From contig WREI01000004.1 of assembly GCA_009779405.1 (NCBI GenBank), positions 52 to 64,051 on the forward strand: a stretch of 64,000 bases of DNA. The letters run 5' to 3'. Positions 21,709 through 57,183 of the stretch are shown here, in pieces. The notes under the pieces were generated by a model. The model saw only the letters and a list, made by a program, of their open reading frames with translations. It had not been told where the DNA came from and searched no databases. The stretch comes from Clostridiales bacterium (GTDB lineage Bacteria > Bacillota > Clostridia > Christensenellales > CAG-138). Each line of letters begins with the position of its first letter. Within the stretch, counting starts at the first letter, position 1. Made by a program: the position numbers and the translations under genes.

Positions 21709-22497
21709 TTATTTTGCGCCACTACGTCGCGCCAATTCCGTTGCGAAAAACGTCGCCACATCTTCGGCGAACTTGCCGACGCCGAAGCCCGCGTCATAGC
21801 CCAGCTCCTTCGCCAGTTCGTGGCCGATGCGTGCGCCGCCGCAGATGACGATATAGTTTTGCCGCTCACCCTCCGCTTCCAACAGCTCTATCAGCCCGGT
21901 CAGGTTTGAGATATGGATATCCTTTTGCGTCACGGTCTGCGAGACGAGGAGCACGTCCGCTTTCAATTCGCGCGCGCGGAGCAAGAGCTCCTCGTTCGGC
22001 ACCTGACTGCCGAGGTTATGCGCTTCGATCATCTCATAGCGCTCCAGCCCGTAATGCCCCGCGAAGCCCTTGCGGTTCATGATCGCGTCGATGCCGACCG
22101 TGTGCGCGTCCGTACCCGTGCTCGCGCCCACGACGACGACCTTGCGGCCTATGTGCTCGCGGATATAGGCGTTGACGGCCTCCATATCCATGGTCTTCTC
22201 CTGCACGGTGACGACCTGTATGGCGTTATAATCCACGCTGTGCGCGACGCCGCCATAGACGACATAGAAGGTGAAGCTGCTGTCGAGCGGCGCGTGGTGG
22301 GCGACGTTCGGGTCGGCTATGCCCATCTTGCGCGCCAGCTGTTTAGCCGCTTCCGCGCCGCGCTCATCGTCCGCGACGGGCAAAGTGAAACTAAGCTGCA
22401 CTTTGCCGTCGTTCATCGTGTCGCCATAGGGGCGCAGTTTGCTTAAATCCAGCAAGGTATCGAAGGCGGTTTTGTTCAGATTATAGTTCCCGCTCAT
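21709..22497 (-). CDS. kamE: Lysine 5,6-aminomutase beta subunit (B12-binding)
   Basis: PYGDTMNDGKVQLSFTLP, DAHTVGIDA cobalamin motif. Confidence 0.95.
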   Translation of the reverse strand: MSGNYNLNKTAFDTLLDLSKLRPYGDTMNDGKVQLSFTLPVADDERGAEAAKQLARKMGIADPNVAHHAPLDSSFTFYVVYGGVAHSVDYNAIQVVTVQEKTMDMEAVNAYIREHIGRKVVVVGASTGTDAHTVGIDAIMNRKGFAGHYGLERYEMIEAHNLGSQVPNEELLLRARELKADVLLVSQTVTQKDIHISNLTGLIELLEAEGERQNYIVICGGARIGHELAKELGYDAGFGVGKFAEDVATFFATELARRSGAK

Positions 22498-24053
22498 TGG
22501 GCAACGCCTCCTTTCATGAGGTCAACAAACGGATTGCGGTATTGCGGTGCTTTGCGCACCACGCCCGACAGCCCCTTACCGCCGTCGCGGGGGCGCTTGA
22601 TATCGGCGAACACGCCCGCTTCCAGCGCCGCGAACAGCCCGCGCCGTTCAATCTCGGCCAGCAGAGCCGCCGCCTTCTCCAACACTTCTGCGGCGCGCAC
22701 CTGTACCCTGCCGCCCTCGCGGAAGCTGATTTCCTCGCCCAAGTGGCGCATCGTGCGCTCGATATAGCGCGCGTTCTCAATGGCCAGCGCGCGGTCGGAG
22801 AGAAAGGGCGTATGCACGGCCTCGGTCAGCATACCCAGCAGGTGTATCTTCTGCCCCGTGAGCACGGTCACCGCGTTAAACAGCGCGTCCTGCACATGCC
22901 CGCGGAAGATATTGCCCGTCATAAACTTGGTCGGCGGCATATATTTCAGCGGCGCATCGGGGAAAATCTCCCGCGCCATCTGCGCCTGCGCCAGCTCCAT
23001 CAGAAAACCGTCCTCGACGTCCGGATCTATCTCAAACGCATGCCCCAGACCCTGCTGCTGTGGGGCCAGCCCTGCAAGCAACGCAAACTGCTCGTTCAGG
23101 AACTGCGAGGCCAGCACGGTATGCGCTTCCTCCACGGCGTCGGCGGTCGTCAGATAATTGTCCTCGCCCGTGTTGATGATCACGCCCGCGAAGGAGTTGA
23201 TCACCCGCGAAAAATACTGGTCGATGATCGTGCGCTGCATATTGATATCGCGGAAGAGTATGCCGTAGAGCGCGTCGTTCAGCATCATATCCAAGCGCTC
23301 GAGCGCGCCCATCGCGGCGATCTCGGGCATGCAGAGCCCCGAGCAATAGTTGCAAAGGCGTATATAGCGCTTCTCCTGCGCGCCCACCTCGTCCAGCGCG
23401 GCGCGCATCAGGCGGAAATTCTCCTGCGTGGCATAGGTGCCGCCGAAACCCTCGGTCGTCGCGCCATATGGTACATAGTCCAATAAACTTTGCCCCGTCG
23501 TGCGGATCACGGCGATCACGTCCGCGCCCTGCACCGCCGCGGCTCGTGCCTGTATGATGTCCTGATATATATCGCCCGTCGCGACGATGACATAGATATA
23601 CGGCGCGTCCTTGTCGCCGTATTCGGCGAGACAGGCGCGTCGCGCGGCGGCGTTTGCGCGTATGCGCTCCGCCGTTTCCCTTGCTATGTTTGCGGCGGCG
23701 GCGTGGGCGGTCTCCACATCGCGAATCTCCACGCGGGACAGGTCTAAGCGCCCCGCGGCGAGTTCCTCAGCGATCTGCTGTGGGGTCAGACCCGTTTCTA
23801 TCATCGCCGCGCCCAATAGCAGGGCCGTGCCCATGGGCAGCAGGCCCTTCTCGTGCAGATGTTCCACCACCACATTGGGCAGCGGCACCTCGAACGCGTT
23901 CACGCCGTCCACGCCCAACAGACGGCAGACGGCCCGCTCCACGGTGACGGTCGTATGCCGGTCGATAAAGCTTTGCGTATCGGCGGCGACCCGGGCGGCG
24001 CTTTGGCGGGCCTTGTTTACTGTGTTTTGGTTTAGGTTTAGTTTGGTTAACAT
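22494..24053 (-). CDS. kamD: Lysine 5,6-aminomutase alpha subunit
   Basis: HTTVTVER, IRTTGQSLLDYVPYG, NYCSGLCMPE, YMPPTK. Confidence 0.95.
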   Translation of the reverse strand: MLTKLNLNQNTVNKARQSAARVAADTQSFIDRHTTVTVERAVCRLLGVDGVNAFEVPLPNVVVEHLHEKGLLPMGTALLLGAAMIETGLTPQQIAEELAAGRLDLSRVEIRDVETAHAAAANIARETAERIRANAAARRACLAEYGDKDAPYIYVIVATGDIYQDIIQARAAAVQGADVIAVIRTTGQSLLDYVPYGATTEGFGGTYATQENFRLMRAALDEVGAQEKRYIRLCNYCSGLCMPEIAAMGALERLDMMLNDALYGILFRDINMQRTIIDQYFSRVINSFAGVIINTGEDNYLTTADAVEEAHTVLASQFLNEQFALLAGLAPQQQGLGHAFEIDPDVEDGFLMELAQAQMAREIFPDAPLKYMPPTKFMTGNIFRGHVQDALFNAVTVLTGQKIHLLGMLTEAVHTPFLSDRALAIENARYIERTMRHLGEEISFREGGRVQVRAAEVLEKAAALLAEIERRGLFAALEAGVFADIKRPRDGGKGLSGVVRKAPQYRNPFVDLMKGGVAQ

Positions 24054-24305: not shown

Positions 24306-25541
24306 TCATTTGCCCCTACGTTTCCGCACCAAATCCTCAGGCTCCAGCGCCAGCTGCTGTCCGGCCAGCAGACCCGCCACGCCAAGGGCGGGTTTGTTGT
24401 GTCTGCCGCCGCAGGCATCGCAGTCACAGCTTTCCGCATATGCTTCCGGTTCCGTATAGGCCGCGATCACGCCCTCGAAATTGCGAAGGACGACGCGCTT
24501 GCCGCCCTGCGAAATCAGATAATTGGGCATCACGGGGATCTTGCCGCCGCCGCCGGGCGCGTCCACCACAAAGGTCGGTACGCAGAAGCCCGAGGTATGC
24601 CCGCGCAAGCCCTCGATGATCTCAATCCCCTTCGCGACGGGCGTGCGGAAATGCTCCAGCCCCCGCGCGAGGTCGCACTGATAAATGTAATAGGGCCGCA
24701 CGCGCATCTTCACCAGTTCGTGCACCAATTTGCGCATCACGTGCACACAGTCGTTCACGCCCGCCAGCAGGACGCTCTGGTTGCCCAGCGGTATGCCCGC
24801 GTCGGCCAGCATGGCGCAGGCGTGCGCCGCCTCGGGCGTGATCTCACAGGGGTGGTTGAAATGCGTGTTCAGCCAAACGGGGTGGTATTTTTTCAGCATA
24901 CTGCAGAGTTCGGGCGTCACGCGCTGGGGCATCACCACGGGTATGCGCGAGCCGATCCGAACGATCTCCACGTGCGGAATCTCGCGCAGGCGCTGCAAGA
25001 TACTCTCCAGCCTGCTGTCGCTGAGCGTCAGCACATCCCCGCCCGAGAGCAGCACGTCCCGCACCTCGGGATGCTGCTTTATGTATTCTATCTGCTGATC
25101 CAATATCGCCGCGGGCGTGGTGCTGTCCGTGGCCCCCGCAAAGCGGCGGCGCGTGCAGTGGCGGCAATACATGGCGCACTGGTCGGTGACCAGCATCAGC
25201 ACGCGGTCGGGATAGCGGTGGGTCAGGCGCGGCGCGGGCGCGTCCCCGTCCTCATGCAGCGGATCGGCCAAATCGTGCGCCGCCACATCCAATTCGCGCG
25301 CCGTGGGGATTGCCTGCTTGCGCACCGGATCGTTCGGATTCTCCAAATCAATCAGGGACAGATAATAGGGCGTGATAGCCATACGCAGGCTCTGCAAACA
25401 CTGTGCCACGCCTAATTCCTCGGCAGGGGAGAGCTGCACATAGCGTTTCAACTCCGCCAAAGCTTCGACGCGGTGCGTCAGCTGCCACTTCCAGTCGTTC
25501 CATTGGGATTCCGGGATGTCGGTGAAGATTGTTCGGTTCAT
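24306..25541 (-). CDS. kamA: L-lysine 2,3-aminomutase (radical SAM)
   Basis: WNDWKWQL, THRYPDR, CAMYCRHCTRRR, DAPGGGGKIP. Confidence 0.97.
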   Translation of the reverse strand: MNRTIFTDIPESQWNDWKWQLTHRVEALAELKRYVQLSPAEELGVAQCLQSLRMAITPYYLSLIDLENPNDPVRKQAIPTARELDVAAHDLADPLHEDGDAPAPRLTHRYPDRVLMLVTDQCAMYCRHCTRRRFAGATDSTTPAAILDQQIEYIKQHPEVRDVLLSGGDVLTLSDSRLESILQRLREIPHVEIVRIGSRIPVVMPQRVTPELCSMLKKYHPVWLNTHFNHPCEITPEAAHACAMLADAGIPLGNQSVLLAGVNDCVHVMRKLVHELVKMRVRPYYIYQCDLARGLEHFRTPVAKGIEIIEGLRGHTSGFCVPTFVVDAPGGGGKIPVMPNYLISQGGKRVVLRNFEGVIAAYTEPEAYAESCDCDACGGRHNKPALGVAGLLAGQQLALEPEDLVRKRRGK

Positions 25542-25562
25542 AGGTGGCTCCTTTATTGAATT

Positions 25563-25659
25563 CGTAGGGGCGCAATACATTGCGCCCTGTAACACATTAA
25601 ATCTGCCCCATCCGGTGCAGTTCTGATTCCACCAGGGCGCGATATATCGCGCCCCTACA
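25563..25659. repeat. GTAG-type REP doublet
   Basis: CGTAGGGGCGCAATACATTGCGCCC ... GGGCGCGATATATCGCGCCCCTACA. Confidence 0.75.
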
Positions 25660-25661
25660 AA

Positions 25662-26702
25662 TTAAATGTATTTAGCGTTGAACAACTCGCGAATCTTCTC
25701 GCTCTCACGCAATTCATGCAAGGTAATCTCGGCGTGATCCCTGGTATACCCGTTGCCGACGATCATCGTCACATCCTTGCCCACGCCCTCGGCGCCCAGC
25801 GCGGCACGCGTGAAGCTCGTCGCCATCGAGAAGAAATAGACCAGCCCCCCGTCGCGCACGGGCAGTATGGCCGACATTTCGCAGACCTCGACGTTTACAC
25901 AGCTGATCGATATATCATATTCCGCGCCGCCGTTCGCCAGCAGCGCTTTTTCGAGCAGGTCGACGGGCCTGGTCGCGTCCGCAACGATATAGTGATGGCA
26001 TACGCCCAGGGCCAGCAACTCCTCGCCCTGCACCGCGCGGCGTATCATGGCGACGACATTGCCCGTTGGCCCCACGCGCTTCATCGCTTCATAGCAGCAG
26101 AGTATGCCGCTCTTGCCGCCCGCGCCGAGTATCAGCACGCTGTCGCCCGGCTTCACCAATTTCGCGGTCTGCGCGGGCGCACCCGCCACGTCCAGCGCGG
26201 CCAAAGCGAGGGCTTCGCTCATATCGTCGGGCAGCTTCGCATAGATCGCGCTCTCGAACAGCACGGCTTTCGCATCCACGTCCACGCGGTCGATATCCAT
26301 ATGGATCTGCTTGATCTTCTCGATCTTCAGCGGCGTCATAGAGAGCGAGACCAACGATGCGATCTTGTCTCCCACCTTCAGATCCCGGCCCGCCAGATCC
26401 TCGCCGATATAGGCCACGCGGCCTATAAACATGCCGCCGCTGCCCGTCACGGGGTTCTGCATCTTCCCGCGCTCCCCGACGATGCCCAGAATCATCTCCG
26501 CAATCCTCTCGGGGTCGCCGCCGCAGGCCCCCTTGATCTGCGTAAAGCTCGCTGAATCCACGTTCAGCGAAATCACATCGCAGATGATCTCGTTGGAGTA
26601 GTGCTTCTCCATATCATTGTCGATCACCTGCGCTGCCTGCGTCAGCACGCCCTGGGGCGCGATTACGCGGTGGATGCCGTATTTGTTGCCTTTTTGTGTC
26701 AT
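25662..26702 (-). CDS. kdd: L-erythro-3,5-diaminohexanoate dehydrogenase
   Basis: YGIHRVI, NPVTGSGGM, ASLVSLS, DVAGAPAQ, GAEGVGKD. Confidence 0.93.
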   Translation of the reverse strand: MTQKGNKYGIHRVIAPQGVLTQAAQVIDNDMEKHYSNEIICDVISLNVDSASFTQIKGACGGDPERIAEMILGIVGERGKMQNPVTGSGGMFIGRVAYIGEDLAGRDLKVGDKIASLVSLSMTPLKIEKIKQIHMDIDRVDVDAKAVLFESAIYAKLPDDMSEALALAALDVAGAPAQTAKLVKPGDSVLILGAGGKSGILCCYEAMKRVGPTGNVVAMIRRAVQGEELLALGVCHHYIVADATRPVDLLEKALLANGGAEYDISISCVNVEVCEMSAILPVRDGGLVYFFSMATSFTRAALGAEGVGKDVTMIVGNGYTRDHAEITLHELRESEKIRELFNAKYI

Positions 26703-26718
26703 GGTGGTTCTCCTTTTC

Positions 26719-27271
26719 AGTTAAGAGTTAATAGTGAAGAGTGAAGAGTTTTGGTTGAAATGCCGTTGGCATTTCTTATCATTGTATTTCTTCACTTCCG
26801 CGTGCGATTGTCTTTGTTGCGGAGTTCAGCATTTTAAGCAATTCTTCGCAATCACCCCATATGGATTCATATTCTTTTTTTGCCAAATATCCCGTCTCAT
26901 AAAGTAACTCAATCCAATATAGCGTTTCGGCACATTCTTTCAGTGCAATACGAAGCTTACTGTGAAAGTCCTTGCGGCTGATAGCATAGCTGCTTTCCGC
27001 AGCGTTCGCGCCAATGCTTGTTCCGCTTCGCAACAACTGCTTGGAAAGCACATACTCCTTCTTTTCCTCACAGAGAAATCTATACAAATTCACGATTCTC
27101 ACAGCGAATCGTTTGCTCTTATATTTTACTGTTTTCTCATCAATCATCATCGCTTACTCCTAATCTTTATCGCGTTAAGAGTGAATAGTTGTAGTAGAAA
27201 TTCCTTCTAATATTATATGGGGAATCGCTTGCGATTCCTACCGCAACTCTTAACTCTTCACTCTTAACCCT
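26719..27271. repeat. Heptamer (AGTKAAK)n inverted-repeat cassette around a four-helix-bundle gene
   Basis: Arms 26719-26750 and 27174-27190 are both complementary to arm 27245-27271. Confidence 0.85.
26779..27150 (-). CDS. Four helix bundle protein (23S rRNA IVS protein / TIGR02436 family)
   Basis: KSKRFAVRIV, LSKQLLRSGTSIGAN, SRKDF.SKL.IALKE..ET.YW; AT-rich. Confidence 0.9.
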   Translation of the reverse strand: MMIDEKTVKYKSKRFAVRIVNLYRFLCEEKKEYVLSKQLLRSGTSIGANAAESSYAISRKDFHSKLRIALKECAETLYWIELLYETGYLAKKEYESIWGDCEELLKMLNSATKTIARGSEEIQ

Positions 27272-27275
27272 ACGC

Positions 27276-28091
27276 TCACATCCCCAAAATCTCCCGCGCT
27301 TCTGCCGGGGTCGCAATCCCGCGCCCCAGCTCCTTTGCGATTCGAACGGCCTTGGCGACCAGCTCGCCGTTGCTCTTGGCCAGTACGCCCTTCTCCAAAT
27401 AGATGTTATCCTCAAAGCCCACGCGCACGTGCCCGCCCATCAGGATGGCCATGGTCGCCATGGGGAATTGCGCGCGGCCCACGCCCGCCGCCGTCCAAGT
27501 GCTGTTTGGCGGTATGCTGCCCGCCATAAACACGAGGTCGCGCGGCGTTGCCGCGATGCCGCCGTTCACGCCCATCACAAAATCAAAGTGCATGGGATCG
27601 GCGATATAGCCCCTGCGGTGCAGGCGCAGAGCCATATCGATCATGCCCTTGTCGAAGACCTCCAGCTCGGGCTTGATACCCCGCGCTGTCATCTTCCGGG
27701 CAAACTCAATGATCGTATTTTCGGTGTTGACGAAAATATCGTCCCCGCCGAAATTGCAGGTGCCGCAGTCCAGGGTCGCCATCTCCGGGTTCAATGTGAT
27801 GGGCTGCAAGCGCTCTTCGTTGCTCATACCCACGGCCCCGCCCGTGCTCGTCTGGATAATCACATCCGGGCAAACTTCGCGAATCGCGGCAATGCACGCG
27901 GCAAAGCGCGCCGCGCTCTGGGTGGGCGTGCCGTCGTCCTCGCGCACATGCAAGTGTATAATCGCCGCGCCCGCGTCAACGGCGCTCTTGGCTTCCCGCG
28001 CAATCTCGGCCACCGTATACGGCACCGCCGGGTTGTGTTCCTTCGTGACTTCCGCCCCGCAAATGCAGGCGGTGATGATGAGTTTTTCCAT
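27276..28091 (-). CDS. kce: 3-keto-5-aminohexanoate cleavage enzyme
   Basis: IITACICGAE, IIHLHVR, STGGAVG, RVGFEDN. Confidence 0.93.
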   Translation of the reverse strand: MEKLIITACICGAEVTKEHNPAVPYTVAEIAREAKSAVDAGAAIIHLHVREDDGTPTQSAARFAACIAAIREVCPDVIIQTSTGGAVGMSNEERLQPITLNPEMATLDCGTCNFGGDDIFVNTENTIIEFARKMTARGIKPELEVFDKGMIDMALRLHRRGYIADPMHFDFVMGVNGGIAATPRDLVFMAGSIPPNSTWTAAGVGRAQFPMATMAILMGGHVRVGFEDNIYLEKGVLAKSNGELVAKAVRIAKELGRGIATPAEAREILGM

Positions 28092-28109
28092 GGGAGCTCC
28101 TTTCATTAA

Positions 28110-28200
28110 GAGGAAGGTGGAAAGAGGAAAGGGGAAAGTTAAGGCATTTCCATGTTCCCTGCCCACTCTATCTTTCCTCTTTCATCTTTCCACTTTCCTC
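28110..28200. repeat. Heptamer-built inverted repeat (GNGGAAA)n / (CTTTCCN)n, gene-less
   Basis: Arm 28110-28138 pairs with arm 28172-28200, which overlaps the last kal codons and stop. Confidence 0.8.
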
Positions 28201-29460: not shown

Positions 29461-29505
29461 CAGGGCGCGATATATCGGCGCCCGGGCGATGCGATCGTCC
29501 CTACG
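29461..29505. repeat. Degenerate GTAG-type REP overlapping the thrC stop
   Basis: CAGGGCGCGATATATCGGCGCCC...CCCTACG. Confidence 0.6.
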
Positions 29506-30751
29506 ATTGAACCCGCCCGCTCCGCTCCAACGCCTCCAAGCTTGGCTCGCAGAGGAACGGCTCCCCCGCCGCCCGCAAAGCGTTGGCCACGTCCTTCAAG
29601 CCGCTGCCTGTGGAGATAACGGTGACGCTTTCGTTGCTGCGTATGATGCCGGTTTCTATCGCGCGCGCCACGCCTGCGGCCGCAGTGACGCCCGCGGGTT
29701 CGCCGAATACGCCCTCGGCGGCACCCAGCAGGCGCATGGTGGCGAGGATATCTTCGTCCGTGACGGCGAGCCATGTGCCGCCGCTGTTTGCTACTGCCCG
29801 CTGTGCCTTGACCGGGTTGCGCGGCACGCCGACGGCTATGCTGTCCGCGATTGTGTTTTCGGGCGTGGGTACCAGCGGGCCGCCCTTGGCATCCACAAAG
29901 GGGCAGCAGCCCGTGGACTGGACGCCGAGTATTTTGGGGATGCGCTCGATCATGCCCAGCTGTAACAAATCATAGAAGCCGTTATAGACCCCGCCGATGG
30001 TGCAGCCGTCGCCCACGGAAACGGCCACCCAGTCGGTGGGCGCAAAATGCAATTGCTCGGCGATCTCCAGCGCGACGGTCTTCTTGCCCTCGGTCAGTAT
30101 GGGATTGATGCCCGCGTTGCGGTTATAGAAGCCCCATTTTTCGATGGCGGCCTTGGACAGCTCGAAGGTTTGGCGATAGTCGCCCGCGACGGAGATGACA
30201 TTCGCGCCGAAGATCAGCAACTGCGCGACCTTGCCCTGCGGCGCACGCTGCGGCACAAAGATCACGGTCTTCAGGCCCATGCGCGCGGCGTTCCCCGCCA
30301 GAGAGCTGGCGGCATTGCCCGTGGAAGAGCAGCTGATCGTATCATAGCCCAGCTCCAAGGCTTTGGCGACGGCTACGCCGCTGGCGCGGTCCTTCAATGA
30401 CGCGGTGGGGTTTATGCCGTCGTCTTTGATATAGAGTGTCCGCAAACCCAGCCTTTCGCCCAAGCGCAAAGACTTATACAGCGGCGACCAGCCGATGCGC
30501 AGAAAATCCGAAAGCCCTTCCGCCCCTCCTGCGGAGGGGCTGCGCAGTGGCATAAGCGGCGCATAACGCCACATGCTGTTGTCCCGATTCCCCGTCAAAC
30601 GCTCGCGGCTGAAATGCTTTTTCACCACGCCATAATCATAGACTATATCCAAAATCCCCGTCTCCCCGCAGTGGGGGCAGGTCATTAATTCGGGCAGGGG
30701 TGGGAATTCTGCGTTGCAGAGGGTACAATGATAACCGAGTATATGATTCAT
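29501..30751 (-). CDS. thrC: Threonine synthase (fold-type II PLP enzyme)
   Basis: N-terminal Cys pairs, NPTASLKDR, SSTGNAA, EGKKT, STGSGLK. Confidence 0.8.
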   Translation of the reverse strand: MNHILGYHCTLCNAEFPPLPELMTCPHCGETGILDIVYDYGVVKKHFSRERLTGNRDNSMWRYAPLMPLRSPSAGGAEGLSDFLRIGWSPLYKSLRLGERLGLRTLYIKDDGINPTASLKDRASGVAVAKALELGYDTISCSSTGNAASSLAGNAARMGLKTVIFVPQRAPQGKVAQLLIFGANVISVAGDYRQTFELSKAAIEKWGFYNRNAGINPILTEGKKTVALEIAEQLHFAPTDWVAVSVGDGCTIGGVYNGFYDLLQLGMIERIPKILGVQSTGCCPFVDAKGGPLVPTPENTIADSIAVGVPRNPVKAQRAVANSGGTWLAVTDEDILATMRLLGAAEGVFGEPAGVTAAAGVARAIETGIIRSNESVTVISTGSGLKDVANALRAAGEPFLCEPSLEALERSGRVQS

Positions 30752-30770
30752 ACGAAGCTCCTTTTTATTT

Positions 30771-30843
30771 GAGTGGAAAGTGAAGGTAATTCGGGAATCG
30801 CTTGCGATTCCTACCGCAACTCCACACTTCACACTCCACACTC
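30771..30843. repeat. Gene-less heptamer element sharing a 30-nt core with the 27 kb cassette
   Basis: 30793-30822 is identical to 27220-27249; arm (ACTCCAC/ACTTCAC)n at 30819-30843. Confidence 0.75.
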
Positions 30844-47351: not shown

Positions 47352-47461
47352 AGTTAAAAGTGAATAGTTAAGAGTGAAGAGTTATGGTTGAAGTTTTATT
47401 ATAGAAATCCCGCAGGAATTTCCACCGCAACTCTTAACTATTCACTATTCACTCTTAACTC
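47352..47461. repeat. Gene-less heptamer (AGTKAAK)n inverted repeat in the tRNA spacer
   Basis: Arm 47352-47383 pairs with 47429-47461; same unit family as the 27 kb cassette. Confidence 0.85.
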
Positions 47462-54166: not shown

Positions 54167-54332
54167 AAGTAATAGGTAATAATGCAGAAGGCAGAGAGGA
54201 GTTGAGAAGTAACAGGTAATAATGCAGAAGGCAGAGAAGGTTCTTTGCAAAGACGTTGGTGCGATTTTGCTTGTTCCAACTCATGCTTCCTGGATGCAGT
54301 TTCTCTGCATTCTGCATTATTACTTATTACTT
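54167..54332. repeat. Gene-less heptamer element between rplI and dnaB
   Basis: Two arms AAGTAAY-AGGTAAT-AATGCAG-AAGGCAG-AGA (54167-54198, 54207-54238) and one complementary arm 54301-54332 containing the rplI stop. Confidence 0.88.
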
Positions 54333-54802: not shown

Positions 54803-55254
54803 AAGTAATAAGTAATAATGCAGAATGCAGAGAGGGGTTCTATTTCTCGTCTGTCTTCTCTTGTCTGCTTTTTGAGGTTTTGATGATTGCGGTTAAAATC
54901 TTTTTTAGCTCCACGCAATCTGCCATAATGTTTTCTCCTTGGTTTTTTGTTAAGTATTCGGTCTTCTGTAATAAAAGCAACCAGTATTCTGTTTCGCTTG
55001 CTTCCTTATAGGCAATATACATCTTCGATAAAAAATCTTTGTTCGATTGCCCGTTGAATGCCTCGTGCGCGTTCGCGCCTATGCTTGTTCCGCTGCGCAA
55101 CAATTGCTTTGACATGATATATTCCTTTTTCTCCTGGCAAAGGAATTGATAGAGCCGAACGATCCGAACGGCAAAGGCCATGGATTTTATCAAAATCGCA
55201 CTGTCTTTCAAGTCTCATTCCCCTCTCTGCATTCTGCATTATTACCTATTACCT
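54803..55254. repeat. 35-bp heptamer-built inverted repeats tightly bracketing a four-helix-bundle gene
   Basis: AAGTAAT AAGTAAT AATGCAG AATGCAG AGAGGGG (54803-54837) vs reverse complement of 55220-55254 (33/35 identical). Confidence 0.92.
54840..55211 (-). CDS. Four helix bundle protein (23S rRNA IVS protein / TIGR02436 family)
   Basis: KSMAFAVRIV, MSKQLLRSGTSIGAN, S.KDFLSKM.IA.KEA.ET.YWL; AT-rich. Confidence 0.9.
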   Translation of the reverse strand: MKDSAILIKSMAFAVRIVRLYQFLCQEKKEYIMSKQLLRSGTSIGANAHEAFNGQSNKDFLSKMYIAYKEASETEYWLLLLQKTEYLTKNQGENIMADCVELKKILTAIIKTSKSRQEKTDEK

Positions 55255-57183
55255 CTCCTCCCCGCTCTCCTCATACTCCTCGATGCTCTTCAGCAGCGCA
55301 AGCTTTGCTTCCGCGATGTTTTGGCCCCGCATCTGCGCGCCGGCCATGTTGAGGTGGCCGCCGCCGCCCAGGCGTTCCAATATGATTTGGACGTTTATCC
55401 CGCCGTAGCTTCGGCCGGAGATGGCGACGGCGTTGCTCTCATAGCCGAGGACGAAGGCCGCCTTGACGCCGCGTATGTCGAGCAGGGCGTCCGCCGCGCG
55501 CGCGGCCAATATCTTGGTATCCGCCACTTCGCCGCAGTCGGAGACCGCGATGCCGCTGTCGCGCACATAGGCGCGCCGCACCACCTCGCCGCAGGCCAGG
55601 TAACCGTCCAGATCGTATTGGAACATGAGTTTGACCGTTGCGAGGTCGGCGCCGTTGCGGCGCAGATAGCCTGCGGCCTCGAACGTGCGCCCGCCCGTGT
55701 TGAACGCGAACTGTTTGGTATCGACCGTGATGCCCGCCAAGAGCGCGCTGCATGTGAAGGCCGTGGGGCGCAGGGTCTCGTCGAAATATTGCATAACCTC
55801 GGTCACCATCTCGGAGGCCGAGGAAGCGCGGGACTCGGTATAATAGAGTGTCGCGCCCTCGATAAAGTCCGCGCTGCGGCGGTGGTGGTCTATGATCGCG
55901 ATATGCTTGCTGCGCCCGATAAATTCCGGCGCGACCGTCGTGTTCGCGCGCTGGGTGTCCACGACCACGAGCACGGAGTTGCCGCGCAGGAGCGACGCCG
56001 CCTGTTCGGGCGTTTTCAAAAGCCGACGCGACAGGCCCTCGCGCTCCATATGTTCCAGCGCATCGGAGATCGTGGGGTTGGGGCCGTCGAGTATGATGCT
56101 GACCCGCTTGCCGACGTGCATTGCGCAGGCGGCTATGCCGAGCGCCGCGCCGATGCAGTCCATATCGGAATATTTATGGCCCATGATAAAGACGTCGCCG
56201 CCGTTCTCAAAGAGCTGGTGCAGGGCGCGGGCGAACTGGCGCGCGCGCACGCGGGAGCGGTTGCTGTCCAACTGGCGCTTGCCGCCATAGAAACGATAGT
56301 CCGCGCCCGCCTTGACGACCGCCTGGTCGCCGCCGCGGCCCAATGCCAGCTCCATGGCCGAGCGCGCGGCCTCCTCGCTGTCGGACAATTGGTTCGCCAC
56401 GCCCACGGCGATGGATAAGGATAAGAATCCACCGCTGCCCGTTTCGATTTTCCGCGCTTCCTGCAACACCGTGAATTTCTCGGCTTCCAATTCTTCCAAC
56501 TGCTTGGCGGCGATGGCGCAGAAATATTTGCCCGTTGCGATGCGCCGATATATGCCCCCCAAGCGCGCGCAGAGCTCGGCGACCAAGCGCTCCGCCTGCG
56601 CGAGTACGGCGGTGCTTGCGATCTGGGTGTCGCCCGACAGCTCCTCGAAATTATCGACATAGATGAGCATGCAATAGGGCATCTGCTCGGTATAAAGCCG
56701 CTGGTAATGCACGGCTTCCGTGCGGTCTAACCAATATTGGAAGACGAGCCGCGTCTTCGCCGAGGGGCGCTGGAGCGGCATCTGCATAACCTGATAGGTC
56801 GCGCCGTGGTGGTTCAACTGCTGTGCCAGTGCCGTACCCGTCAGGAAATTCGGCAGCACGGCTTGGATGTTCTTGCCCATAAACAGCTCCGCCATGGCCT
56901 TGTTGCGCCAGAGCACGCGGCCCGAATCCTGCATGATCAGCGCGGGGACGGAGACATCGTTTATGATGCGCCGCGCCGCGTCCCTATTTTCGGCGGCGAC
57001 GCGGTTCATCAGGCGCTCCTGTTTGACGTTCACATGGCGCAGGCGAAGGAAGACATAGAGCATGCAGAGCAGGCTCAGCCCCGCCGCGCCCAGCCCCCAA
57101 TAGAGCTGCCAATAGGCAAGCGCGCCGGAGATGGCCAGCAGCAGGATGAACAGGACGGAGATAACGCCGCGGTAATTCTTCAT
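55249..57183 (-). CDS. gdpP: c-di-AMP phosphodiesterase GdpP (PAS, degenerate GGDEF, DHH/DHHA1)
   Basis: 2 TM, LGRGGDQAVV, MGH..DMD, VVDT, IDHHR, GGGGH; conserved yybS-gdpP-rplI-dnaB order. Confidence 0.93.
   Translation of the reverse strand: MKNYRGVISVLFILLLAISGALAYWQLYWGLGAAGLSLLCMLYVFLRLRHVNVKQERLMNRVAAENRDAARRIINDVSVPALIMQDSGRVLWRNKAMAELFMGKNIQAVLPNFLTGTALAQQLNHHGATYQVMQMPLQRPSAKTRLVFQYWLDRTEAVHYQRLYTEQMPYCMLIYVDNFEELSGDTQIASTAVLAQAERLVAELCARLGGIYRRIATGKYFCAIAAKQLEELEAEKFTVLQEARKIETGSGGFLSLSIAVGVANQLSDSEEAARSAMELALGRGGDQAVVKAGADYRFYGGKRQLDSNRSRVRARQFARALHQLFENGGDVFIMGHKYSDMDCIGAALGIAACAMHVGKRVSIILDGPNPTISDALEHMEREGLSRRLLKTPEQAASLLRGNSVLVVVDTQRANTTVAPEFIGRSKHIAIIDHHRRSADFIEGATLYYTESRASSASEMVTEVMQYFDETLRPTAFTCSALLAGITVDTKQFAFNTGGRTFEAAGYLRRNGADLATVKLMFQYDLDGYLACGEVVRRAYVRDSGIAVSDCGEVADTKILAARAADALLDIRGVKAAFVLGYESNAVAISGRSYGGINVQIILERLGGGGHLNMAGAQMRGQNIAEAKLALLKSIEEYEESGEER

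Follow-up and report, generated by a model that had tools for sequence, protein, structure and literature searches.

The presence of a small gene, enclosed between arrays of heptanucleotide repeats, inside a lysine fermentation operon raises the question of what such an insert is and how it is tolerated. The locus belongs to a window of 64,000 nucleotides, the whole stretch of DNA analyzed here, and comprises a 123-residue four-helix-bundle ORF located between inverted AGT[G/T]AA[G/T] heptamer arrays (window positions 26719-27271, minus strand). Upstream in the transcript, the kce gene (27276..28166, minus strand) encodes the 3-keto-5-aminohexanoate cleavage enzyme (NF052387, 456 bits for a cut-off of 382; PF05853, E-value 1e-112) and ends with a TGA stop codon at 27278-27276. 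On the other side of the insert, the kdd gene (25662..26702, minus strand) encodes the L-erythro-3,5-diaminohexanoate dehydrogenase (NF052381, 261.6 bits for a cut-off of 200), with an ATG at 26702 preceded by a GGAG at 26713-26710. It is followed in the transcript by kamA (24306-25595) and, further downstream, by the gene of the D-lysine 5,6-aminomutase alpha subunit (22494-24053). The Pfam PF05853 match starts only at residue 28 of the listed kce ORF, and the true kce start is likely the ATG at 28091, since an ORF beginning at the listed position 28166 would run through a gene-less hairpin (28112-28198). The latter, made of GGAAAG units with a 32-nt loop, is thus located just upstream of the likely kce start.

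In the same family as the organism of the window, kce and kdd are separated by 31-229 nt devoid of any PF05635 ORF in 14 out of 14 loci that contain both genes (KDD identity 74-82%), as compared with 577 nt here. The GC content of the insert is ~40%, against 57-66% for its flanks, and the kce-kdd stretch is a low-GC insertion. The original prediction that a four-helix-bundle paralog interrupts kce-kdd is therefore confirmed, both by the family assignment of the ORF (see below) and by the adjacency of the two genes in relatives. Of note, the 229-nt spacer of one relative (G036, L034:1272-1501) contains, at the position of the cassette, several copies of another small repeat (atttagc ... gcgaagc hairpins). 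The left (L) arm of the cassette begins 5 nt past the kce TGA, while the right (R) arm stops 5 nt ahead of the kdd GGAG. A consensus scan reports neither a sense-strand promoter-like site before the gene nor an intrinsic terminator after the R arm, and an Rfam search of positions 26000-28000 (E-values up to 1) returns no rRNA, only three chance-level matches, none of them near its gathering score. Given its site between the kce stop codon and the kdd ribosome-binding site, its co-orientation and the lack of a promoter-like site of its own, the cassette is proposed to be transcribed within the operon mRNA.

The anatomy of the cassette is best described in transcript order, all features being on the minus strand. 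The purine-rich L arm (27244..27271) reads (G)GGTTAAG AGTGAAG AGTTAAG AGTTG and harbors about four copies of an A-R-T-K core. It is followed by a small hairpin, hp1 (GGAATCGC-AA-GCGATTCC, 27221..27238), that is common to gene-less elements, and then, inside the segment 27174..27204, by the 3' half of a second hairpin, hp2 (GGAATTTC, 27204-27197), by TACTACAAC, and by a short complementary arm, R' (27191-27174), with about three cores. An AGGAG ribosome-binding site (27161-27157) precedes the ORF (27150-26779), downstream of which are found an intact hp2 (GAAATGCC-AAC-GGCATTTC, 26757..26775), a variant identical to that in C57:5389-5505, and the long R arm (26719..26750). The latter, 32 nt in length, has five cores, reads AGTT AAG AGTT AAT AGTG AAG AGTG AAG AGTT on the plus strand, and matches the five-core pattern exactly (C4:26770-26801). 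Hence every part of the predicted layout, arms, two small hairpins, ribosome-binding site and gene, was found at the position assigned to it. The inverted-repeat search also substantiates the claim that the L arm has two possible partners, as it is complementary to the far arm R over 38 nt (82%) and to the near arm R' over 17 nt (94%). The flank inverted-repeat score of the locus is 41, versus 18.6 +/- 2.3 (maximum 27) when 400 pseudo-genes are placed at random in this genome.

The ORF is assigned to PF05635 (E-value 3.8e-29, 101.5 bits versus a cut-off of 33.8) and to TIGR02436 (E-value 3.4e-32, 110.9 bits versus 24). PF05635 is its sole Pfam match, and no match with REP-associated tyrosine transposases is reported. 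To our knowledge, PF05635/TIGR02436, a very large family of small proteins, has no assigned function outside diversity-generating retroelements. The closest relative of known structure, as judged by sequence match, is PDB 2rld_A (E-value 5e-35, residues 5-115), and the PDB entries 2rld and 2gsc contain 5 chains each. The 2.5-Mb genome holds three PF05635 genes, all of them located between heptamer-built inverted arrays. Another member of the family, Avd, forms a pentameric barrel and binds a short stem-loop of RNA (bioRxiv 10.1101/2023.10.23.563531). As regards reverse transcriptases, RVT_1 matches are found only on contigs C105 and C14, and none beside the PF05635 genes; the corresponding ORFs are G000 C105:915-1733 (597-aa open frame) and C14:11384-11998 (385-aa open frame).

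With two potential partners for the L arm, it had been proposed that the cassette works as a conformational switch, in which L pairing with R' would leave the gene open to translation, and L pairing with R would place it in a loop, some factor, perhaps the protein itself, setting the balance. Folding of the minus-strand region as a 591-nt RNA supports the outer pairing at the expense of the local one: at equilibrium, the expected L:R pairing amounts to 24.3 out of 27 nt, while the competing L:R' pairing in the full-length RNA is 0.00. The minimum free energy (MFE) of -158 kcal/mol rises to -152.2 kcal/mol with R' blocked and to -132.1 kcal/mol with R blocked, that is, a cost of 6 and 26 kcal/mol, respectively, and the duplex energies are -31.6 kcal/mol for L:R and -18.9 kcal/mol for L:R'. 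For each of the genome's three cassettes, the outer arms are paired in both the MFE and the centroid fold. An RNA that ends before R does fold L:R' (local fold -32.6 kcal/mol), and since this pairing is the best one only before R has been transcribed, the local hairpin would be transient and co-transcriptional. A kinetic role for the third arm may be envisaged. R' is transcribed ~430 nt ahead of R. The same [L-loop-R']-RBS-gene-R layout, with unrelated heptamers, was recognized by eye in two other cassettes (L114, Bacteroidia; L123, Oscillospiraceae), and a mirror layout, L-gene-[L'-loop-R], occurs in L088, in L115 and in the genome's own locus L003. These cases, together with the third arm of another cassette of the genome, speak in favor of a switch. 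However, the target-like third arm is found in only 2 out of 62 other cassettes, so the alternative helices are not conserved across relatives, and a strict scan reports 35 of the 62 as plain two-arm cassettes and ~10 with extra arms of some kind. Moreover, this genome is in any case crowded with hairpin repeats, and the L-hp1-R' segment is not a dedicated sensor but one decayed member of a dispersed repeat found 24 more times. A regulated switch is thus unsupported, the equilibrium probability of L:R' being close to zero, and we regard this mechanism as quite improbable. The other cassette of the window that has a third arm is located at 54805-55256 (PF05635 ORF ~54850-55221, arms GTAATAG/TGCAGAA). 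This third arm (54304-54332) lies just beyond rplI, and the complementary arm could consequently pair on its upstream side, with the small gene inside the loop, or on its downstream side, with rplI inside.

The origin of the third arm can be traced to the gene-less hairpins of the genome. Period-7 arrays number 246, compared with 3 in a triplet-shuffled copy of the genome, and 47 inverted array pairs were identified, 42 of which are gene-less hairpins with loops of 32-105 nt. At least 24 of the 42 belong to the AGTKAAK type of the target cassette, with a length of 90-160 nt, and 24 gene-less copies align over their full length with the target segment 27166-27279. Their common order consists of about four heptamers, GTTGC, hp1 (GGTAGGAATCGCAAGCGATTCC), an AT-rich linker, hp2 (GAAATTCC-GCA-GGAATTTC or GAAATGCC variants), TACCGCAAC, and the complementary heptamers. 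These 24 copies exhibit terminal inverted repeats and are devoid of coding capacity, and, being numerous, they have the attributes of MITE- or Correia-type elements; the ends of their arms are fuzzy. Judged by this alignment, the first 100 nt of the cassette, which encompass the L arm, hp1, half of hp2 and R', correspond to a complete, slightly decayed gene-less hairpin element, and it is for this reason that the L arm possesses a second pairing partner. The element at the front of the cassette lacks the 5' half of hp2; next come the gene, the intact hp2 and the five-core R arm. R' with half of hp2, and R with hp2, are therefore direct repeats flanking the gene, and precisely the gene-less form would result if a deletion occurred between them. 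In our reading, the three-arm form reflects the density of hairpins and the turnover between gene-bearing and gene-less copies rather than a conserved sensor. The gene-less hairpins are located between co-oriented genes in 27 out of 42 cases, and the orientation of their loops relative to transcription is not biased (7 versus 4). Besides the hairpins related to the target, 10 hairpins of the GGAAAG type and 4 of the AGGCAG type are without a matching gene in the assembly (92.7% complete). Further gene-less hairpins of the window are located at 2557-2641 (AGGCAG type), 47352-47460 (AGTKAAK type) and 30780-30842 (minus strand), the last one combining AGTGTGG-type arms with the hp1 of the target (GGTAGGAATCGCAAGCGATTCC) and overlapping the listed start of a PALP-family ORF (29501-30841).

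Short heptamer arrays are a long-known and unexplained trait of many bacterial genomes. Cassettes related to that of the window were collected from the best 80 of at least 597 loci, with one genome per species, and 76 of them have enough flanking sequence for analysis. The 80 loci were found with an 8-protein alignment, a 21-protein alignment being too diverse; they hence sample the subfamily of the target (49-70% identity) and not PF05635 as a whole. This sample spans Bacillota, Bacteroidota, Lentisphaerota, Spirochaetota, Alphaproteobacteria and other groups, and protein identity across phyla reaches up to 70%. The flanks contain an inverted repeat scoring 30 or more in 62 out of 76 loci, and a period of 7 is the best lag in 75 out of 76, as compared with none and 46, respectively, of 400 random placements in the genome of the window. 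Among more diverse PF05635 genes from 61 related genomes, about 12 out of 28 loci are without clear arms. On viral contigs, 16 out of 21 analysable loci have arms, 15 of those 16 with a period of 7. An unsupervised register search reveals that all heptamers share the frame A-R-T-K-N-N-N (5.5 bits versus 4.1 for shuffled heptamers), the core being conserved in 56 (A), 60 (R), 56 (T) and 56 (K) out of 60 cases. The number of cores per arm has its mode at five, with exactly five in 60 out of 124 arms and four to six in 92. A different architecture is displayed by L008 (G054:C3), in which the PF05635 gene is flanked by 103-nt inverted repeats that consist of repeated small hairpins and not of plain heptamers. 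The two identical cassettes of G037 (L017 and L023), considered as a possible case of recent transposition, proved to be a single region that is represented twice (100% identity over 3262 nt) and are uninformative in this respect. TAACTGA repeats are treated in PMC4679880. A search of the open-access literature returned no account of this class of cassette outside rRNA intervening sequences (IVS), nor of its gene-less relatives, and heptamers are mentioned there for the Coxiella IVS alone.

The position of the cassettes relative to neighboring genes is precise. In 46 out of 55 loci, the cassette gene and the ORFs on both sides of it point in the same direction. Measured from the L-arm start, the stop codon of the upstream gene falls within -2 to +25 nt in 35 out of 37 loci and within -2 to +4 nt in 19, while the next ORF starts at a median distance of 19 nt after the R arm. 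A filled and an empty site could be compared in two species of the genus of the window: in G000, a stop codon is followed by 9 nt and an ATG, and in G001 a 490-nt cassette is located there, the first heptamer of which supplies the TAA of the upstream gene while its R arm is directly followed by GGAG and the ATG. Annotators should be aware that the stop codon of an upstream gene can come from an insert of this kind. Stop words are not enriched in the L-arm heptamers as a whole, being found in 41 out of 60, versus 42.7 +/- 3.0 after letter shuffling.

It had also been suggested that each paralog has its own type of heptamer and that protein and repeat co-vary. The first part of this proposal is valid for the three paralogs of the genome, the heptamers of which share the core and differ in the spacer. 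The second part is not borne out beyond close relatives. Among 1770 pairs of proteins, those below 65% identity have spacers no more similar than expected by chance (0.8-0.96 matches out of 3); the similarity reaches 1.54 matches for the 37 pairs at 65-80% identity and 2.0 for the 2 pairs above 80%. The spacer thus follows relatedness only above ~65% identity, and a clade-level code between protein and spacer was discarded on this ground. The heptamers of close relatives differ by single steps (TTGATAA/TTGACAA, TTCGTAA/TTCTTAA), and the spacer pattern appears, from these comparisons, to be one of co-inheritance with fast drift, for which co-inheritance alone suffices; a spacer code may be borne by a few residues. 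The hairpins, at least 14 in number, of the two heptamer types that have no matching gene also count against co-variation. In the genomes of 61 relatives, exact five-core arrays and the gene occur together in 6, the gene only in 8, arrays only in 5, and neither in 42. Two congeners harbor ~54 and 53 exact five-core arrays, respectively, which belong to different spacer families, indicating recent, lineage-specific bursts. In G001, a control pattern read backwards matches 24 times, and some of the 53 may be other AT-rich repeats; the matches listed for this genome are still clear heptamer arrays (AGTGGTC, AATGCGT, AATGTAC, AGTGGAA).

The arms themselves were compared in 71 pairs (2692 columns, 2355 matches). 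Mismatches that would be of the G-U type in the sense RNA amount to 63, those of the A-C type to 82, the largest class being G/T transversions (109), for which neither strand allows a pair. The order of the units is not mirrored between the arms, with an identity of 0.850 versus 0.836 after permutation of the units (higher in 22 cassettes, lower in 26, equal in 4). At the level of sequence comparison, both tests argue against a pair-by-pair selection of the RNA stem. The arms are complementary as arrays of one unit type, the R and K positions being free, and registers shifted by 7 nt pair about equally well. That both arms keep the same fast-evolving spacer nevertheless requires either a selection for pairing at the level of the unit or frequent copying between the arms.

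Among known systems, the ORF-bearing IVS of 23S rRNA are built most alike. Ralph and McClelland reportedly described such ORF-bearing IVS in the 23S rRNA of Leptospira in 1993. In the IVS of Coxiella burnetii (PMC4990558), an S23p-family ORF is accompanied by a terminal stem of 28 bp and by GACAGAT heptamers repeated two or three times in tandem, and RNase III cleaves this IVS in vitro. The cassette shares with the ORF-bearing IVS an ORF of the same family in the loop of a terminal inverted-repeat stem, tandem heptamers in the stem region, a GC content below that of the host, and a sporadic, horizontal distribution. However, it is located in the spacer of a protein-coding operon (kce-kdd) and not in helix 9, 25 or 45 of 23S rRNA; a gene-less hairpin copy is attached to it, and the genome contains dozens of its relatives without a gene; and its cleavage by RNase III is presumed here. 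The cassette is therefore filed as a variant of the ORF-bearing IVS, since it is built alike, and would work alike, while lacking their defining 23S location. REPIN/RAYT systems (PMC3116915, PMC3337134) resemble the cassette by a single-copy gene flanked by an inverted repeat that is also dispersed as gene-less hairpin doublets, with a repeat type proper to each gene. They differ from it in that the cassette gene encodes a 123-aa four-helix bundle instead of a tyrosine (HUH) transposase, and in that its repeat consists of arrayed 7-nt units, all with the same 4-nt core, instead of a 20-40-nt palindrome, some types being geneless. Correia elements of Neisseria and bacterial MITEs are likewise small, intergenic, co-transcribed and hairpin-forming with inverted ends, and RNase III can bind or cut Correia hairpins (PMC2649163); in contrast, the arms of the cassette are built of heptamers, a coding variant exists, and a target duplication is not defined here. 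Lastly, the Avd protein of diversity-generating retroelements belongs to the same Pfam family, is pentameric and binds an RNA stem-loop, whereas the neighbors of the cassette are kce and kdd, with no reverse transcriptase adjacent.

Taking these data together, we consider it reasonably probable that the locus is a selfish, IVS-like cassette that is transcribed with its operon and the gene of which is looped out by the outer stem, as in the IVS of 23S rRNA. The PF05635 gene would be placed in the loop of a long hairpin whose arms are the heptamer arrays. Pairing of the outer arms in the mRNA would bring together the kce stop codon and the start region of kdd, so that the insert would do little harm to the operon. 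The stem would probably be a substrate of RNase III, by analogy with the cleavage of 23S rRNA IVS; an RNase III gene is present in the genome. The putative pentameric protein may bind either the array of five cores or the hairpins that belong to its type of element, a suggestion drawn solely from the counts of five, in the chains and in the cores. As to the L:R' hairpin, it would be either a transient co-transcriptional intermediate or a leftover of the interconversion between gene-bearing and gene-less forms. The lack of G-U bias, the unmirrored order of the units, the loose linkage between arrays and gene, and the existence of two abundant geneless hairpin types all count against this reading. 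The locus ties together, in one genome, the PF05635/TIGR02436 family and the heptamer arrays, since the cassette with the gene has its arms and loop hairpins in common with dozens of hairpins that lack one, both kinds being inserted, almost to the nucleotide, where genes of operons meet.

The main rival explanation, which is compatible with much of the same evidence and which we nonetheless hold to be unlikely, is a system that operates at the DNA level like REPIN/RAYT or MITEs. The arrays would then be terminal repeats or single-stranded DNA hairpins, the RNA stem a by-product, and the four-helix-bundle protein would act in trans, propagating or preserving both the cassette that encodes it and the gene-less hairpins of the same type. 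Such a system would be in line with the coexistence of 3 gene-bearing and 42 gene-less copies, the commonest type of which matches the target down to the loop hairpins, with the complete difference in repeat families between the two congeners (~54 and 53 arrays), which implies recent bursts, and with the occurrence of gene-less copies in either orientation (7 versus 4). Arms without G-U bias or mirrored unit order, cassettes on viral contigs (16 out of 21 with arms), and a protein up to 70% identical across phyla point in the same direction. Conversely, the protein is without known nuclease or recombinase motif, and the one studied member of its family, Avd, binds RNA; the arm ends are fuzzy and no target-site duplication is defined here; and arrays and gene can occur apart, with 5 genomes containing arrays and no PF05635 match and 8 the gene and no exact arrays. 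The tight placement relative to the stop codon and the ribosome-binding site, along with the co-orientation, rather points to constraints at the level of the transcript. In another alternative, the element would benefit its host: like REP/BIME or Correia elements, the hairpins would set how stable the segments of an operon are or how strongly they are translated relative to each other, with the small gene as cargo. Hairpins are located in spacers of the same operon region (28112-28198, before kce, and 30780-30842), 27 of the 42 gene-less hairpins are found between co-oriented genes, and Correia elements are bound or cut by RNase III and alter the expression of their neighbors (PMC2649163). The absence of the insert from the same spacer in 14 out of 14 relatives and the turnover of repeat families between congeners argue against a benefit of this kind, for which we see little chance. 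A more speculative reading, doubtful at this stage, is that heptamer hairpins and PF05635 pentamers form an undescribed self-propagating system. A ring built of five bundles would recognize the five A-R-T-K cores present in the hairpin's 5' arm, as RNA or single-stranded DNA, and would spread its own cassette and gene-less copies to operon stop/start junctions and rRNA helices without a canonical transposase, the three-arm form being an intermediate of gene loss or gain.

The cassette is also represented in termite-gut metagenomes, in three runs of which DNA contigs carry it and no 7-nt indels are reported. The runs found to contain this DNA consist of metagenome DNA contigs only, no RNA run being listed among them. 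Over the arms, the summed depth exceeds the baseline by a factor of 10-20. Three joints in these data, 26755>27220, 26759>27240 and 26781>27222, link the two sides of the gene with 15-31 other letters between them; they hint at gene-less relatives, possibly from other organisms.
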